The notes under the pieces are model-generated. The model did not search any database, was not told the origin of the DNA, and saw nothing but the letters and a program-made list of their open reading frames with translations. The translations under genes and the position numbers were made by a program. From assembly GCA_041651115.1 (NCBI GenBank), contig JBAZJY010000002.1, forward strand, positions 286,855-350,854: DNA of 64,000 nt. The letters are read 5' to 3'. Positions 16,166 through 23,814 of this stretch are shown here, piece after piece. The stretch's first letter is position 1; each line of letters begins with the position of its first letter. The stretch comes from Candidatus Omnitrophota bacterium. Lineage in GTDB: Bacteria; Omnitrophota; Gorgyraeia; Gygaellales; Profunditerraquicolaceae.

Positions 16166-16324
16166 ATGGCTAAATATCGTTGCACTGTTTGCGGTTATGT
16201 TTATGATCCTGCTGCCGGAGACGCGACTCAAGGCATTGCCCCGGGCACAGCGTTTGAAAGCCTTCCTGCGGGATGGACCTGCCCTGAATGCGGAGTAGGC
16301 AAGGACATGTTTGAAAAAATTTAA
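16166..16324 (+). CDS. Rubredoxin
   Basis: 52 aa [15 protein letters not shown]...[17 protein letters not shown]; two CxxCG knuckles; SD ACAGGAG upstream; not in ORF track (<60 aa). Confidence 0.85.
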
Positions 16325-16331
16325 AGCCGGC

Positions 16332-16805
16332 ATGAAAAGAATCCCAGAAGACATCGTGCATTTTTTTCGGGAACAAGGGTTTGTCATTGTTTCTACGTTA
16401 GATGACCGGGGCCGGCCTCATAATTCCTGTAAAGGGATAATAAATATCTCGCCGTCCGGGAAAGTTTACCTGCTGGATGTTTACCTGAAAAATACTTATA
16501 GTAACCTTAAACGTAACTCAAATGTCAGTATTACCGCTGTTGACGAGCATAAATTCAAAGGCTACTGCCTTAAGGGCAAGGCTAACATTATTAATCGCGA
16601 GCAGATCAATCCGCAGATAAGAAAAGAATGGGATGGTCGCATTGCCGGCAGGATCACGCAGCGGCTGATCAAAAATATCCGCGAACAAAAAGGGCATCCG
16701 AAGCACCCGGAAGCGCTCCTGCCGCATCCGGAATATATGATCGTGATGGAAGTCAGCGAGATCGTTGACCTGACTCCCCATAATTTAAAAGGAGAGGTCC
16801 AGTAA
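16332..16805 (+). CDS. Pyridoxamine 5'-phosphate oxidase-like FMN-binding split-barrel protein (flavin reductase-like)
   Basis: 157 aa from ATG 16332 (track start 16311 is a TTG overlapping rubredoxin); split-barrel pattern; oxidative-stress operon context. Confidence 0.5.
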   Translation: MKRIPEDIVHFFREQGFVIVSTLDDRGRPHNSCKGIINISPSGKVYLLDVYLKNTYSNLKRNSNVSITAVDEHKFKGYCLKGKANIINREQINPQIRKEWDGRIAGRITQRLIKNIREQKGHPKHPEALLPHPEYMIVMEVSEIVDLTPHNLKGEVQ

Positions 16806-17281
16806 TGGGAAATATATTTGCCGCCAGCGAGATCGTAGAGATCGGCATTCAGATTGAAAAGAACGGCAGGGATTTTTATAATGTGCTTTGCCGTAAGTCA
16901 AAAGACCAGAATGCCGTAGAGGTTTTTAAATTCTTGTCAGGAGAAGAGGAAAAGCATATCCAGGTTTTTAAAAGTATCCTTGAGACGACCGAGAAATACG
17001 AGCCGCCTCAAGCGTATGCCGATGAGTATTTTGCGTATATGAACGTGCTGGCAAGCGAATATGTCTTTACCCAAAAGGATAAAGGCGCTGAAATGGCCGG
17101 CAAGATCAAAAGCGACAAAGAAGCCGTGGAGATAGGCATTGGTTTTGAAAAAGACTCAATAATCTTTTATGAAGGGATGAAAAAGGCAGTGCCGGAATAC
17201 AATGTATCCATAGTAGAAGAATTAATACATCAGGAGCAGAAACATTTACAGCAGCTGGTAAAATTAAAGGAGAAAATATGA
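16805..17281 (+). CDS. Rubrerythrin-family ferritin-like diiron protein (no rubredoxin domain)
   Basis: 158 aa; two ExxH-type diiron motifs (EEEKH, EQKH) in four-helix-bundle pattern. Confidence 0.6.
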   Translation: MGNIFAASEIVEIGIQIEKNGRDFYNVLCRKSKDQNAVEVFKFLSGEEEKHIQVFKSILETTEKYEPPQAYADEYFAYMNVLASEYVFTQKDKGAEMAGKIKSDKEAVEIGIGFEKDSIIFYEGMKKAVPEYNVSIVEELIHQEQKHLQQLVKLKEKI

Positions 17282-17514
17282 CCAAGAGCGTGAAGGTTTA
17301 CAGTACTTCCACCTGCCCTTATTGCATCCGCGTAAAGCAGTTCTTAAAAGATAATAATATTGCCTTTGAAGACGTTGATGTCGCGTCTAACGAGAAGGAA
17401 GCTGAGCTAATGGTGGAAAAATCCGGCCAGATGGGCGTGCCGGTGCTGGACATAGATGGCGAGATTATTGTCGGTTTTGATAAGGAGAGAATAAAAGAGG
17501 CGCTGGGACTATAA
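17278..17514 (+). CDS. Glutaredoxin-like protein
   Basis: 78 aa; CPYC active site, GVPVLDIDGE thioredoxin-fold motif. Confidence 0.75.
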   Translation: MTKSVKVYSTSTCPYCIRVKQFLKDNNIAFEDVDVASNEKEAELMVEKSGQMGVPVLDIDGEIIVGFDKERIKEALGL

Positions 17515-17515
17515 T

Positions 17516-18427
17516 ATGTATGACCTGATTATCATCGGAGCAGGGCCGGCAGGCATTACTGCCGCTGTCTATGCCGCCCGCAAGAGGATCAAACAGCTGG
17601 TCATTAGCATGGATATCGGCGGCCAGGCAGCATGGAGCGGCGACATTGAAAACTACACCGGCTATCAATTTATTTCCGGGCCTGAACTGGCAGCTAAGTT
17701 TGAAGAGCATATGCGCAAGTTTGAGATAGAATTGAAGGAACAGGAAACGGTTACGCAAGTCTTGAGGTCCGGAGACAAGATATTGGTTAAGACTAATAAG
17801 ACTGAATATGCGGCAGCAAGCGTGATCATTGCCTCGGGCAAAAGGACGCGGGAATTAGGCGTGCCGGGTGAAACAGAGTTTAAGAATAAGGGCCTGACTT
17901 ATTGCGCGACCTGCGACGCGCCGCTGTTTTCCGGAAAGAACGTGGCGGTTATTGGCGGAGGCAATTCCGCGTTGGACGCCGCTATACAGCTGATGCGCAT
18001 TGCAAAACATGTATACATCATTAATATTGCCGCGGCTTTAACGGGTGACGCGATAATGCAGGAGCAGGTAAATACAAGCCCGCTGGTTACGGTAATAAAC
18101 AACAGCCAGGTAACTGCTGTTTTGGGCGACAAAATGGTAAGCGCCATACAGATAAAAAAAGAAGGCAGGATTGAAACTATTCCTCTTGAAGGCATATTCG
18201 TAGAGATCGGCTTGATCCCGAATTCAGAATTCGCCAGTTCCATAGAAAAAAACCAGCTGGGAGAGATCAAGGTAAACTGCCGTAATGAAACCAGTATTGA
18301 AGGGATCTTTGCCGCCGGAGACGTTACCGACGTGCCGGAAAAACAGATCATCATTGCTGCAGGAGAAGGCTCAAAAGCCGCGCTTAGCGTTTTTCGTTAC
18401 CTCATCCAGCATCGCTTCGGGGCATAA
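17516..18427 (+). CDS. trxB: Thioredoxin-disulfide reductase
   Basis: 303 aa; FAD site IIGAGPAG, redox-active CATC (TYCATCDAPLF), NAD(P) site GGGNSA. Confidence 0.8.
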   Translation: MYDLIIIGAGPAGITAAVYAARKRIKQLVISMDIGGQAAWSGDIENYTGYQFISGPELAAKFEEHMRKFEIELKEQETVTQVLRSGDKILVKTNKTEYAAASVIIASGKRTRELGVPGETEFKNKGLTYCATCDAPLFSGKNVAVIGGGNSALDAAIQLMRIAKHVYIINIAAALTGDAIMQEQVNTSPLVTVINNSQVTAVLGDKMVSAIQIKKEGRIETIPLEGIFVEIGLIPNSEFASSIEKNQLGEIKVNCRNETSIEGIFAAGDVTDVPEKQIIIAAGEGSKAALSVFRYLIQHRFGA

Positions 18428-18508
18428 TACAGGAATCCTTTGACTTGCTTCTCGTTTTGTGTTAACATTTTTCAATTTACCCGCTTCAGTAAGAAGGGAG
18501 GTGAAAAA

Positions 18509-18883
18509 ATGAAGAAGTTAATCCTTACGGCTATGGTTTTATGCCTGGCGGCAGGTTTTGCCTTTGCCGAAGAGGCTGCCATGGAAACTGCAAGCATGCC
18601 GATGATGGTCAAGGGCACGATCATCGACAATATGTGCGCAGGAGCGCATGGCGCGGATCTTGCGGAGTTTATCAAAACACATCCTAAGAGTTGCGCATTG
18701 ATGCCTGATTGCGAAGCCAGCGGTTACGCTATCTATGCCGACGGCAAATTAATGAAGTTCGATATGGCGTCAAACGCGAAAGTCGCGGAATTCCTGAAGA
18801 AGGAAGATAGTAAGCTGGAAGTGGTTGTTGAAGTAGAAAAAGCAGGAGAAGAATTAAAGCTGGTTTCTATAAAGAATCAATAA
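18509..18883 (+). CDS. Exported hypothetical protein with 3 Cys
   Basis: 124 aa from ATG 18509 preceded by GGGAGG; signal peptide MKKLILTAMVLCLAAGFAFA; no recognisable family. Confidence 0.45.
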   Translation: MKKLILTAMVLCLAAGFAFAEEAAMETASMPMMVKGTIIDNMCAGAHGADLAEFIKTHPKSCALMPDCEASGYAIYADGKLMKFDMASNAKVAEFLKKEDSKLEVVVEVEKAGEELKLVSIKNQ

Positions 18884-18901
18884 TTCTCCAGTATTTGTTC
18901 A

Positions 18902-18945
18902 AGGGCCGTTTCTTTTTTTGAAAAGAAACGGCCCTTTCATTTATT
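18902..18945 (+). terminator. Intrinsic terminator (15-bp stem AGGGCCGTTTCTTTT/AAAAGAAACGGCCCT with flanking T/A runs; potentially bidirectional)
   Basis: Read directly downstream of 18883 stop. Confidence 0.65.
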
Positions 18946-19024
18946 AAAAAAATACTTGACAAATTATTGTTCTCATGTATACTATACTATGTTGATAGAG
19001 TTAATAGAATAAAGAGGAAAAAAG

Positions 19025-19465
19025 ATGAAGATTACCTATAAGGGCGATTATGCATTAAAGGCGGTTTTGGACCTGGCAATACATTATGATCGGGAGTTAG
19101 TCACCAGCCATGATATGGCTAATCGCATAGATACTCCGATTAAGTTCCTGGAACAGATATTACTGGATCTCAAAAAGGGCGGTTTTATTGAAAGCCGGCG
19201 CGGGAAAGTCGGAGGTTATTTATTAGCCAAATCTCCCGCTGAAATTACAGTAGGGGACGTAATCAGGTTTATTGAAGGGCCGATAGAGCCGGTTGCCTGC
19301 GCAAAAGACGGATACACAGAATGCAGGGACTTATATAAATGTGTTTTTAGGAAAATCTGGCAGGATGTGGCACAAGCAACATCAGGGATTATAGACAACA
19401 TTACTTTTAAAGAGTTGGCCAGCCGGGTTAGTTCTGCGCAGCAACTGCCGGCTTACTCAATTTAA
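19025..19465 (+). CDS. Rrf2-family transcriptional regulator (second copy)
   Basis: 146 aa; wHTH DYALKAVLDLA...; Cys triad CAKDGYTECRDLYKC; TTGACA/TATACT promoter upstream. Confidence 0.75.
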   Translation: MKITYKGDYALKAVLDLAIHYDRELVTSHDMANRIDTPIKFLEQILLDLKKGGFIESRRGKVGGYLLAKSPAEITVGDVIRFIEGPIEPVACAKDGYTECRDLYKCVFRKIWQDVAQATSGIIDNITFKELASRVSSAQQLPAYSI

Positions 19466-19477
19466 AGGAGAAAATAC

Positions 19478-19564
19478 GTGGCCGTTTATTTCTATGATAA
19501 TACGATGATGTGTTATGCGGTAATGATGTGCCGCCTCTTTGGTGGGGAGGGGCCTCCTATGTAG
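19478..19564 (+). CDS. Candidate Met/Cys-rich leader peptide MAVYFYDNTMMCYAVMMCRLFGGEGPPM
   Basis: GTG 7 nt after SD AAAGGAG; 28 codons with 5 Met codons (two ATG-ATG pairs plus a final ATG) after the GTG initiator, and 2 Cys; two MMC triplets; 30 nt upstream of intrinsic terminator and met/cys biosynthesis operon. Confidence 0.4.
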   Translation: MAVYFYDNTMMCYAVMMCRLFGGEGPPM

Positions 19565-19593
19565 CATTATTACGATATATATAGGATGGACAG

Positions 19594-19626
19594 CCCACTA
19601 CCGAGGAGAGCGGTCAGTGGGTTTTT
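19594..19626 (+). terminator. Intrinsic terminator: CCCACT-A-CCG aggagag CGG-tc-AGTGGG followed by TTTTT
   Basis: Read directly; an alternative pairing of CCTC..TGGTGGG (19536-19548, inside the leader ORF) with CCCACTA..GAGG (19594-19606) could act as anti-terminator. Confidence 0.6.
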
Positions 19627-19657
19627 ATTTGGTGCAAATTAAACTTAGGAGGGAAAA

Positions 19658-21138
<1,481 letters not shown>

Positions 21139-21147
21139 GGGGGGACA

Positions 21148-22083
21148 ATGGGAAAAATATTTTCCGATATTACGAAAACCGTGGGCAATACACCTTTGGT
21201 GAAATTGAACCGTATCACCGAAGGGCTGGAGGCAACAGTATTGGTAAAGCTGGAATCTTTTAACCCACTCTCCAGCGTAAAAGACCGCATAGGAGTGTCA
21301 TTGATCGAAGATGCCGAGCGCAGAGGCTTGCTTAAAAAAGGCACTACGATAATTGAGCCGACCAGCGGTAACACAGGAATTGCTCTGGCATTCGTAGCTG
21401 CGGCAAAAGGCTACAAGCTTATTTTGACCATGCCCGATACCATGAGCCTTGAGCGCAGACAATTGCTCAAGATATTCGGCGCCGAGCTTGTGCTCACTGA
21501 AGGCGTAAAAGGGATGAAGGGAGCAATAGAGAAAGCCGAAGAGCTGGCAAAAAATACTCCTAATGGTTTTGTACCGCAGCAATTCAATAATCCGGCAAAT
21601 CCTGAGATCCACCGTAAGACTACAGCGGAGGAAATCTGGAATGATACAGACGGTAAGATCGATATTCTTGTTTCCGGAGTCGGCACCGGCGGCACGATCA
21701 CTGGAGTTGCGGAGGTAATAAAAAAGCGTAAACCTGAATTTAAGGCGATCGCGGTTGAGCCGGATGCTTCGCCGGTATTATCCGGCGGTAACCCTGGACC
21801 GCACAAGATCCAAGGCATCGGAGCGGGATTTGTGCCCCAGGTTCTAAATCGGGCGGTTATTGATGAGGTTATCCGCGTCACCAATGACCAGGCCGGAGAA
21901 ACCAGCCGTCAGCTGGCAAAACTGGAAGGTATTCTTGCGGGAATTTCCAGCGGCGCTAGCGTTTGGGCGGCATTGGAAGTGGCGAAAAGAAAAGAAAACA
22001 AAGGAAAGCTCATTGTGGTAGTGCTTCCCGATACGGGCGAGCGCTATCTTACTACATGGCTTTTCCAAGAGGTTAATCCATGA
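21148..22083 (+). CDS. cysK: Cysteine synthase A (O-acetylserine sulfhydrylase)
   Basis: 311 aa; PLP-lysine motif [26 protein letters not shown]. Confidence 0.85.
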
Positions 22084-23195
22084 CGAAGGAATATTTCAGC
22101 CTTGACGTGCTTGCCCTGGAAAATGGGGACAGGTTCGGGCCGGTAATACTTGCATATGAAACATACGGTACGTTGAATAAGGAAAAGACCAATGCTATTC
22201 TTGTTCTGCATGCCTTTTCAGGGGATGCGCATGCCGCAGGTCTCTATGACGACAAGAATGATCCGGGTTGGTGGGATTCAATGATCGGTCCGGGAAAGGC
22301 ATTTGATACCGATAAATATTTCGTGATCTGTTCAAATGTCCTTGGGGGCTGTAAAGGTTCAACTGGCCCGTCGAGCATAAATCCTAAAACCGGCAAGCCT
22401 TATGCGCTTAGCTTTCCGCTTATCAGTATCGGCGATATAGTTAATGCGCAAAAGCGCCTTATTGACCATCTGGGTATAGAAAAACTGCTGACGGTGGCGG
22501 GCGGATCAATGGGCGGAATGCAGGCTTTAGCATGGCTGGTAAAATATCCAAAGAGCATACGCAGCGCAATACCGATTGCCACTGCTGTCAGGCATTCTTC
22601 GCAGCAGATCGCGTTTAACGAAGTAGGCAGGCAGGCGATCATGGCCGATACTCATTGGAAAGAGGGAAATTATTACGGCGGGCCGCTGCCGGACAAGGGC
22701 TTGGCAGTTGCCCGGATGATCGGCCATATTACTTACATGAGCGAACGGTCCATGGCGGAAAAATTCGGAAGGCAGAAAAAAGACAACATACAGCCGTTCA
22801 AGTTTACAGCTGATTTTGAGGTAGAAGGATATTTGCGTTATCGCGGGGATAACTTCGTAAAGCGGTTTGACGCCAATTCCTATCTTTATATCACTAAAGC
22901 AATGGATAATTTCGACGCCTCGCAAGATAAGCCTTTGCAAGAAGCCTTGCGGGGAGTAAAGGCCAAACTGTTAGTGATCGCCTTTAAGTCAGACTGGTTG
23001 TATCCTGCGTATCAGTCTAAGGAAATTGTCAGGGCTTGTAAACTTTCCGGCGTAGAAGCTACTTATTGCGAAATAGATTCTACTTACGGCCATGACGCGT
23101 TCCTTCTGGAAGCAGAAGAAGAGACGCACCTGATCGCGCATTTCCTAAAGAAAGTTTTTTATGAATACGAGGTGACGGGTAATTATGCAATATAA
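22080..23195 (+). CDS. metX: Homoserine O-acetyltransferase
   Basis: 371 aa; alpha/beta hydrolase, nucleophile elbow GGSMGG, conserved D/H. Confidence 0.85.
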
Positions 23196-23814
23196 GGACA
23201 TCCATCCGGATCATAGGGCAATATTAGGGCTGGTTAATCCCCGCTCCTCTGTCTTGGACCTTGGCTGTGGTACAGGAGACCTGTTGTATCTTTTAATCAA
23301 AGAGAAAGATGCGGCCGGCCATGGCATAGAGATAGATGAGCAGGCAATATACCAATGCGTCAGCAGGGGGGTAAATGTCCTGCACGGGGATATTGATACC
23401 GGGCTTGCCGAATACCAGGATAAGTCGTTTGATTACGTGATCCTTAACCAAAGCCTGCAACAGATAAGGCATGTCGATAAAGTGCTTCAGGACGCCTTAC
23501 GGGTAGGTAAAAAAGTGATCGTCGGATTTCCTAATTTTGCCCATTACAAGTCAAGGCTGCAGATGTTGTTCCGGGGCAGGACGCCGATAACCGGCGCCTT
23601 GCCTTACCAGTGGTATGAAACGCCGAACCTGCATTTTTTGAGCATTTCCGACTTTACGGCATATTGCCGGTCAAAAAATATCACTATTGAGCAGAGTGAA
23701 TGCATAAGCGGGAACAGGCGTATCCGCATACTGCCGAACCTATTTGCGCAGGTGGGGATATTTTTAATTAAAACTGTGGATAAGACAAAGGAGGACAGAG
23801 ATGCCGTATATTAA
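23185..23814 (+). CDS. metW: Methionine biosynthesis protein MetW (methyltransferase-like)
   Basis: 209 aa; SAM-MTase glycine motif [10 protein letters not shown]; overlaps metX end as in metXW operons. Confidence 0.75.

Follow-up and report, generated by a model that had tools for sequence, protein, structure and literature searches.

The metY operon and its leader

The window analyzed here is a stretch of 64,000 nucleotides (nt) from a Candidatus Omnitrophota metagenome-assembled genome (MAG), and it carries a combined homocysteine/cysteine operon, yezD-metY-cysK-metX-metW, preceded by a 192-nt leader that we describe as a candidate ribosome-mediated attenuator (Table 1). The leader holds a short open reading frame (ORF) rich in methionine (Met) and cysteine (Cys) codons, followed by an intrinsic terminator. 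Much of this had been proposed from the letters alone, in what we call the sequence-only reading: the 28-codon ORF, its Shine-Dalgarno (SD) sequence 7 nt away, the Met pairs with their Cys codons and the terminal Met are all read in the sequence as claimed. The terminator had been placed directly before a metY operon; the operon stands, but its first gene is yezD (DUF2292) and not metY. That account had also passed over the Rrf2-family regulator gene lying directly before the leader.

The SD sequence of the leader ORF overlaps the TAA stop codon of this Rrf2 gene, the product of which scores under the NCBIfam equivalog cut-offs for IscR and CymR. The database protein identical to the window YezD is named YezD family and comes from a Candidatus Omnitrophota MAG. 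The sole good promoter-like site lies 5' of the Rrf2 gene and is the probable start of a transcript carrying both that gene and the leader, and the promoter scan of 19030-19657 returned no promoter-like site. The U-tract of the terminator ends only ~27 nt before the yezD start codon, too short a distance for a promoter, and expression of the biosynthetic genes would therefore have to pass the terminator.

Table 1. Features of the window and of analogous loci (positions refer to the window unless a locus label is given).
Feature	Position	Strand	Remarks
Strong terminator	18901-18936		just before the promoter
Sigma-70-like promoter, TTGACA-16-TATACT	18956-18983	+	promoter scan, 11/12 matches
Operator-like motif TACTATGTTGATAGAG	18985-19000	+	putative binding site of the Rrf2-family regulator
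Rrf2-family transcriptional regulator gene	19025-19465	+	Pfam PF02082, E=8e-37; NCBIfam superfamily TIGR00738
SD of leader ORF, AAAGGAG	19464-19470	+	7 nt 5' of GTG
Leader ORF, 28 codons	19478-19564	+	GTG 19478 to TAG 19564; peptide MAVYFYDNTMMCYAVMMCRLFGGEGPPM
Candidate regulatory codon cluster 1, ATG ATG TGT	19505-19513	+	Met10 Met11 Cys12
Candidate regulatory codon cluster 2, ATG ATG TGC	19523-19531	+	Met16 Met17 Cys18
Predicted antiterminator, 5' strand	19539-19563	+	codons Phe21 to Met28 and first two bases of stop codon
Terminal ATG of leader ORF	19559-19561		directly before stop codon
Predicted antiterminator, 3' strand	19578-19604	+	19594-19603 also the terminator 5' arm
Intrinsic terminator	19594-19630	+	stem 19594-19603 CCCACTACCG with 19611-19621 CGGT(C)AGTGGG; tail T5ATTT 19622-19630
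SD of yezD, AGGAGG	19648-19653
yezD (DUF2292), small protein	19658-19849	+	first gene past terminator; Pfam PF10055
metY, O-acetylhomoserine sulfhydrylase (homocysteine synthase)	19846-21138	+	TIGR01326, 684 bits
cysK, cysteine synthase A	21148-22083	+	TIGR01139, 482 bits
metX, homoserine O-acetyltransferase	22080-23195	+	NF001209, 511 bits
metW	23185-23814	+	TIGR02081, 240 bits
Met/Cys mini-ORF locus, Elusimicrobia	L020:3769-3970		ends ...MPMCMCCCGAGTLCAYDR
Met/Cys mini-ORF loci, Ignavibacteria	L039:3430-3786; L051:3503-3855		peptide part ...AMCCCCMMC... (L039)
Met/Cys mini-ORF locus, Balneolaceae/Gracilimonas	L073:3497-3819		peptide MKLFQQNITFPNATMCCMCMCKAQT
Met/Cys mini-ORF loci, Bacteroidota	L065 (Thermonema rossianum); L072:3513-3815
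Further tandem loci of the Balneolaceae/Gracilimonas, Ignavibacteria and Bacteroidota set	L078:3516-3837; L069:2967-3290; L058:3599-3899; L045:3583-3885; and others

The exact 28-residue leader peptide has no match in a collection of 15 billion proteins, and an NCBIfam search with it returned no family; gene callers rarely report ORFs as short as this. The whole leader folds more stably than its shuffles (z = -2.6). Two other interpretations of the ORF were considered. An internal promoter in the AT-rich TATGATAAT (~19495-19503) with a leaderless start at ATG 19505 is unlikely, given the empty promoter scan and the SD-led homologues, and a precursor of a ribosomally synthesized and post-translationally modified peptide was rejected on finding no maturation enzymes nearby.

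Homologous leaders and their coding signature

We performed a metY-based scan with one genome per species that recovered 80 loci, the closest of them from Omnitrophota (90% identity). Comparison of the leader with these 80 loci by blastn gave no match, and a related gap was found in only one of them (L021, Omnitrophota), which contains the mini-ORF MFFFPNNMGLMMCRIEMRGQGGLPIK; its terminator, CCCGCT/AGCGGG where the window has CCCACT/AGTGGG, shows a compensatory change. Further leaders were obtained through a metagenome scan with the Rrf2 protein, nhmmer, and contigs fetched through YezD homologues. The resulting family, drawn from genomes and metagenomes, comprises 22 distinct homologous leaders, 15 of them from the first scans, with nhmmer E values for complete leaders from 1e-39 to 4e-16.

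The leader reading frame is open in all 22 homologues, while the other two frames contain 0 to 4 stops (three leaders have one stop-free alternative frame), and most members begin with ATG after an SD-like purine-rich stretch (AGGA, GAGG, AAGG or similar). Start codon excluded, Met and Cys make up 18.6% and 14.4% of leader residues, compared with 2.2% and 1.5% in the long ORFs of the window, and every member has at least three internal Met codons and at least one Cys codon. Taken alone, the Met/Cys richness of the window ORF stands out only moderately (binomial 4e-5 per ORF), and 3 other loosely similar Met/Cys ORFs lie within the 64 kb; it exceeds chance because it is conserved across the 22 homologues (pooled binomial p of ~3e-117). 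Conservation of the mini-ORF in relatives had been suggested as a check on the sequence-only reading, and the Met and Cys codons prove to be its sole strongly conserved coding feature.

Cluster 1 is conserved in the family as MM(M)C(C) and cluster 2 as M-x-M-C-C/R, with an arrangement that varies between members (MMCYAVMMC, MMMCCSMAMCC, MMCCSMCC and others), which argues for codon identity over a fixed peptide or RNA motif. Both Cys codons are used (TGT 45, TGC 35). Across the last 14 codons, third-position conservation is 0.55, compared with 0.62 and 0.66 for the first and second positions, and third-position variation that keeps the amino acid is clearest at Gly, Cys and Pro codons.

The genes that follow the leader are always sulfur amino acid genes, ordered as yezD(-DUF3034)-metY-cysK... 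or with metY directly (L111 and L153); in L083 and L087 the downstream gene is a putative PAPS-reductase-like gene, read from the sequence by eye. In most of the loci retrieved, as in the window, the leader stands directly behind the Rrf2 stop codon, a position that would suit a hairpin acting as nothing but the terminator of the Rrf2 gene, with the ORF a chance frame. However, many other relatives lack both leader and terminator, Rrf2 there directly abutting metY, yezD or cysK, and the leader also occurs where no Rrf2 gene precedes it. It follows a probable cation-efflux gene in L118 (by eye), a Thi4-like gene in L172 and a DHH gene in L177, and in L156 it has a promoter of its own, TTGACA-17-TAATCT. 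This indicates that the leader goes with the genes downstream of it and is more than an Rrf2 terminator. With the ORF conserved throughout the family as well, the comparative data contradict the terminator-only explanation, to which we assign next to no probability and which we reject.

Two degenerate copies were observed: L150:3448-3513 keeps the terminator module GGGACAACCCACTGCC and has lost the ORF, and L091:3452-3560 keeps a short ORF (MKVRLMCCMRMRGLFSGGELE) with no terminator before the next gene. Thiamine pyrophosphate riboswitches (RF00059) lie near the sulfur metabolism loci of two relatives (L108:1830-1944 and L023:7862-7973), and Thi4-like genes stand beside the Rrf2/yezD locus in L161, L172 and probably L125/L126 (by eye). 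In most relatives compared (L021, L085, L108 and L161-L178) a DUF3034 gene (~280 amino acids [aa]) separates yezD from metY; it is absent from this position in the window, where yezD overlaps the metY start by 4 nt (19846-19849). YezD is weakly similar to the sulfur starvation protein OscA (NCBIfam, 35 bits, under the cut-off).

Terminator, predicted antiterminator and proposed switching

The claimed intrinsic terminator downstream of the ORF is present, with a 10-bp stem, one bulged C, a 7-nt loop and a predicted energy of about -14 to -16 kcal/mol (ViennaRNA). A simple consensus terminator scan, which may not allow the bulge, did not detect the hairpin. Across the homologues 87% of cells are paired, with compensatory A-U/G-C and G-C/A-U exchanges at three or four pairs, and the covariation score was reached by none of 500 shuffles, although the homologues are phylogenetically related, so shuffle statistics overstate independence here and below.

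An antiterminator pairing with the terminator 5' arm had likewise been proposed, and the one found is longer than supposed. It is a long interrupted hairpin of three helices, with the window pairs 19539-19547/19595-19604, 19549/19594, 19552-19554/19588-19591 and 19555-19563/19578-19586. The outer helix joins the Gly codons GGUxGxGG to the terminator 5' arm CCCACURCC, the middle helix joins GGUCC to GGGAC, and the inner helix joins the last codons and the stop codon to a variable segment just 5' of a conserved GGAYGGGAC. Since bases 19594-19603 are common to both hairpins, terminator and antiterminator exclude each other. The folded antiterminator segment reaches -31 kcal/mol with a small upstream hairpin included, compared with about -15 for the terminator, and folding of 15 leaders gave a homologous interrupted hairpin for most of them.

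Support for this pairing across the family differs between helices and methods. In a fixed-column test on a MAFFT alignment, 73% of antiterminator positions paired, compared with 31-48% in slid controls, with no covariation beyond shuffles; covariation is uninformative on this alignment because the variable loop region is misaligned. A swap test of the inner helix gave a mean of -9.3 kcal/mol for cognate duplexes versus -6.5 for swapped ones (permutation p<5e-5); for the outer helices, conserved on both strands, it gave no signal. In a covariance-model-guided alignment of all 22 leaders, which leans towards the model, 75% of antiterminator cells pair versus 35-45% when slid, nine pairs show double changes, and the covariation score was reached by 6 of 500 shuffles.

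The antiterminator strand begins 8-10 nt past the end of the candidate regulatory codons, and the stop codon lies within the inner helix, ~60-70 nt before the U-tract, a spacing like that of trpL. Mutually exclusive folds had been proposed as a further check, and with the antiterminator overlapping both the ORF 3' end and the terminator arm, the window leader switches in ribosome-mask folding if the footprint reaches 18 nt or more 5' of the A site (A-18), a test in which the full leader is folded with a ribosome-sized stretch kept single-stranded. With the ribosome stalled at M10, M11, C12, M16 or M17, the terminator probability was at most 0.01, and at C18 it was 0.22. With the ribosome at the stop codon, it was 0.16 for a mask from A-15 and 0.99 for a mask from A-18 or further.

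We consider it likely that the leader is a ribosome-mediated transcription attenuator with Met and Cys regulatory codons, and the his/trp/thr-style mechanism put forward in the sequence-only reading is supported by the comparative and thermodynamic evidence. We infer from these data that the ORF is translated, that ribosomes stall in it, and in which direction and how strongly this acts. Transcription from the promoter 5' of the Rrf2 gene would enter the leader, and a ribosome would initiate at its own SD and GTG. With Met-tRNA and Cys-tRNA plentiful, the ribosome would pass the Gly-Gly-x-Gly-Pro-Pro-Met codons to the stop and cover 19539-19563; with this 5' strand covered, the terminator arm would be free, and RNA polymerase would halt at the U-tract (~19622-19630) before yezD-metY-cysK-metX-metW. 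With Met or Cys scarce, it would stall at the ATG-ATG-TGY clusters (19505-19531), 5' of the antiterminator strand, whereupon the antiterminator would form, the terminator would be blocked and the biosynthetic genes would be transcribed.

Several points weigh against this reading, in addition to the relatedness of the homologues noted above. The logic is complicated by Met starvation, which should lower initiation at the leader as well. No covariation is seen in the outer antiterminator helix (Gly codons/CCCAC; swap test), because both of its strands are conserved, and under the minimal footprint (A-15) this helix can still form upstream of a ribosome that has halted at the stop codon. Equilibrium modelling is heterogeneous across the family: ~8 homologues favor the terminator in every state, two favor the antiterminator, and the overall contrast of stop over stalled states is weak (Wilcoxon p=0.03). 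A trp-like 1:2 pairing between Cys and Gly codons is found only in some members (the L130/L137/L144, L147/L123/L111 and L108 groups) and is not clear in the window or L087; the codon-specific switching seen in L130, L137, L144 and L147 is consistent with such a hairpin. Equilibrium "arm paired" modelling without the terminator 3' arm did not discriminate the states. Given this heterogeneity, the attenuator model relies on kinetic, co-transcriptional folding, so the folding probabilities show compatibility and not proof.

A further difficulty is that the terminal AUG-stop and an SD-like element just 5' of it are conserved beyond what the model needs. This GGAGG (GGUGAU in one clade) lies 6-8 nt 5' of a near-invariant AUG or GUG plus stop codon in ~17 of the 22 leaders (window site 19547-19564), the pairing partner of the AUG-stop covaries while the AUG-stop itself is fixed, and L162, in which the leader ORF ends early, retains AUGUAG out of frame. 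Such features could belong to an attenuator that depends on translation but has no Met/Cys specificity, in which any ribosome at the GGAGG...AUG-stop, elongating or start-stop initiating, blocks the antiterminator, so that the leader would report general translation capacity or initiator-tRNA supply and the Met/Cys codons would be secondary. However, the AUG is missing in four or five leaders (L021, L104, L156, L177), and G-rich codons are needed anyway to pair with the C-rich terminator arm. A nonspecific device would also leave unexplained both the extreme, variable-pattern Met/Cys enrichment upstream and the unrelated MCMCMC leaders of other phyla, which lack the AUG-stop motif, and we judge it unlikely.

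The conserved G-x-G-G-P-P-M tail and the aromatic residues near the N terminus could instead reflect a functional Cys/Met-rich small peptide, metal- or sulfur-binding or a partner of Rrf2, with the hairpin its leaky terminator; the leader peptide peTrpL reportedly acts in trans, and much larger Cys/Met-rich ORFs exist in some loci (L099, L106). The tail, however, is the antiterminator strand, and L162 dispenses with it as peptide and keeps its RNA sequence. In addition, there is no promoter space before yezD, so downstream expression must depend on read-through, the analogues in other phyla share only composition and terminator, and the peptide is absent from NCBIfam and from the protein collection searched above. 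We regard a functional peptide as quite unlikely. The larger ORFs (L099:139-276 and L106:2236-2373, both on the minus strand) encode 45 aa of extreme Cys/Met richness (e.g., MCTSGDMKCCKMIQDCCECMMTMMEAGCMCCMCMNNTPVCCGCSK; 20-22 M+C) and are probably small metal-binding proteins unrelated to the leader.

A ligand-binding riboswitch or protein-binding leader, responding to S-adenosylmethionine (SAM), homocysteine or the Rrf2 protein and with the ORF incidental, appears very improbable. It would account for the conservation of the RNA around GGAYGGGACARCCC; riboswitches are the usual control of met operons, and SAM-I aptamers do lie beside the analogous leaders in Balneolaceae, Bacteroidota and Ignavibacteria loci. 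Against this, the RNA forms one interrupted hairpin whose loop varies, and not a multi-helix aptamer, while translation is indicated alike by the open frame, the SD, the start codon and the variation at third positions. Rfam 15 at gathering score found no family in the window, a search of 19350-19750 at E<=10 returned only a spurious mir-135 match, and no family matched the leader at gathering thresholds in twelve homologous loci. The lack of a SAM-I or SAM-II consensus noted in the sequence-only reading therefore extends, on covariance models, to every riboswitch and T-box model searched, in the window and in these loci, and identity as a SAM riboswitch (SAM-I, II, III, IV, V or VI) or T-box was rejected.

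The attenuator would probably not be the only control on this transcript. A motif of the TACTATGTTGATAGAG type lies 25-40 nt 5' of the Rrf2 start in most of 7 distinct matching relatives with an adjacent Rrf2 gene, and directly 5' of the leader in L156 and L177, with no Rrf2 gene between. An Rrf2-type repressor acting at this conserved operator probably provides a second, promoter-level control, so that the conserved block would serve two-tier regulation by repressor and attenuator. The full promoter/operator block, TTGACA...TAYWNTRTTGATAGAG, spans 18948-19014 in the window and lies 5' of Rrf2 in most matching loci (upstream of Rrf2 in L081, L086, L088, L122, L133 and L167; also at L156:83-150 and L177:1146-1161); in loci with no Rrf2 gene in between, the block stands immediately 5' of the leader.

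A redox cluster at 16311-18883, 5' of the Rrf2 unit, comprises a PNPOx-like gene, rubrerythrin, glutaredoxin, a thioredoxin-reductase-like gene and an unassigned 147-aa ORF with a hydrophobic N terminus and possible signal peptide (by eye), and it ends in the terminator that precedes the promoter. The same cluster adjoins the locus in contigs of P0004, and its thioredoxin-reductase-like gene also lies beside Rrf2 in L081, L082 and L168.

Analogous mini-ORFs in other phyla and known attenuators

We scanned all fetched loci for Met/Cys-rich mini-ORFs and found one within 1.1 kb upstream of metY in 20 of the 80 metY loci, compared with an expectation of 4.0 (Poisson 9e-9, in lineages that are not independent). 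In the Elusimicrobia locus L020, the mini-ORF is followed by a terminator (CCCCGCCA..TGGCGGGG+T7) just before metY, and its Gly codons GUGGGGC are able to pair with the terminator 5' arm. This layout repeats that of the Omnitrophota leader, to which no homology is detectable. Most analogues examined have their own terminator after the mini-ORF (L065 is an exception), and a strand at the stop codon or just past it is able to pair with the terminator 5' arm (by eye). This convergence on composition and terminator is strong support for a codon-sensing role.

Fifteen of these loci carry a SAM-I aptamer (RF00162, 63-83 bits) in tandem with the mini-ORF, usually 3' of it between the ORF terminator and metY, and upstream of it in L065. 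Such tandems are seen in the Balneolaceae, Bacteroidota and Ignavibacteria loci. Each such locus looks like a leader-peptide attenuator combined with a riboswitch, and the occurrence of a Met/Cys mini-ORF and terminator next to a bona fide SAM-I shows the two to be distinct modules. SAM-I (S-box) elements upstream of met genes share with the Omnitrophota leader their position and their output, premature intrinsic termination, but sense SAM through a four-helix aptamer that the leader lacks.

Leader-peptide attenuation is known for Trp, His, Thr, Leu, Ile/Val and Phe, with trpL, hisL, thrL, leuL, ilvL and pheL of Proteobacteria as the classical cases and others in Actinobacteria and Bacilli, whereas the textbook control of methionine biosynthesis is by riboswitches, T-boxes or protein repressors. 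The Omnitrophota leader resembles the classical attenuators in its short SD-led ORF enriched in codons for the product, its intrinsic terminator before the structural genes, its predicted antiterminator sharing the terminator 5' arm, and its spacing from stop codon to U-tract; leaders responding to several amino acids also have precedents in thr (Thr+Ile) and ilv (Ile/Val/Leu). It differs from them in having Met and Cys as its regulatory codons, in an antiterminator 5' strand that lies inside the ORF (the last 8 codons and stop) and not after it, in the inconsistent presence of a 1:2 hairpin, in an often intercistronic position directly behind a regulator gene, and in its host phylum, and it has no sequence or Rfam relationship to them.

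The closest mechanistic relatives are upstream ORFs (uORFs) with Cys codons. The uORFC-8-2 motif upstream of cysS in Rhodobacterales contains a Cys-codon uORF and ends in a terminator with a U-run (PMC8632094), actinobacterial cys/cbs leaders have Cys codons with no conserved terminator hairpin, Rho-dependent termination being proposed (PMC1262725), and mycobacteria have polycysteine leaderless small ORFs (bioRxiv 10.1101/834739). Like the Omnitrophota leader, these ORFs are short, lie upstream of their target genes and contain Cys codons in tandem; sensing of Cys-tRNA charging, with control of cysteine-related genes, has been proposed or shown for them. They contain Cys codons only and precede cysS, cysK/cbs or the mycobacterial cys operon, whereas the Omnitrophota leader conserves its Met codons at least as well as its Cys codons and serves an operon for both homocysteine and cysteine. 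Their peptides are unlike that of the leader and their gene contexts different, and we treat them as relatives in mechanism only.

Broad attenuator surveys mention no Met leader (PMC2965389), and in the searchable, mostly open-access literature we found neither a Met-codon leader attenuator, in agreement with the novelty claimed in the sequence-only reading, nor a tandem of SAM riboswitch and leader peptide, although such absence is not proof. What appears to be new, and is well supported computationally, is the Met, and dual Met+Cys, specificity; the mechanism itself would be classical ribosome-mediated attenuation. Whether Met/Cys-codon leader attenuators form an unrecognized multi-phylum class serving metY-type sulfhydrylase operons, with the Omnitrophota AUG-stop perhaps a start-stop landing site, we regard as evenly balanced. 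Such a landing site would add sensitivity to initiator Met-tRNA.

If the attenuator reading is correct, one of the oldest regulatory paradigms gains a new specificity, and stalling at AUG codons would be usable as a regulatory signal although Met also serves initiation. The tandem analogues would be natural two-input attenuators, their transcripts integrating charged Met- and Cys-tRNA through the ribosome and SAM through the aptamer. Some of these analogues occur in culturable hosts (Gracilimonas and Thermonema rossianum DSM 10300), in which the idea is open to direct test. Met/Cys mini-ORFs of this kind escape gene callers, as the absence of the window peptide from even a very large protein collection illustrates. 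For the uncultured phylum Omnitrophota, this leader would be a first cis-regulatory element.

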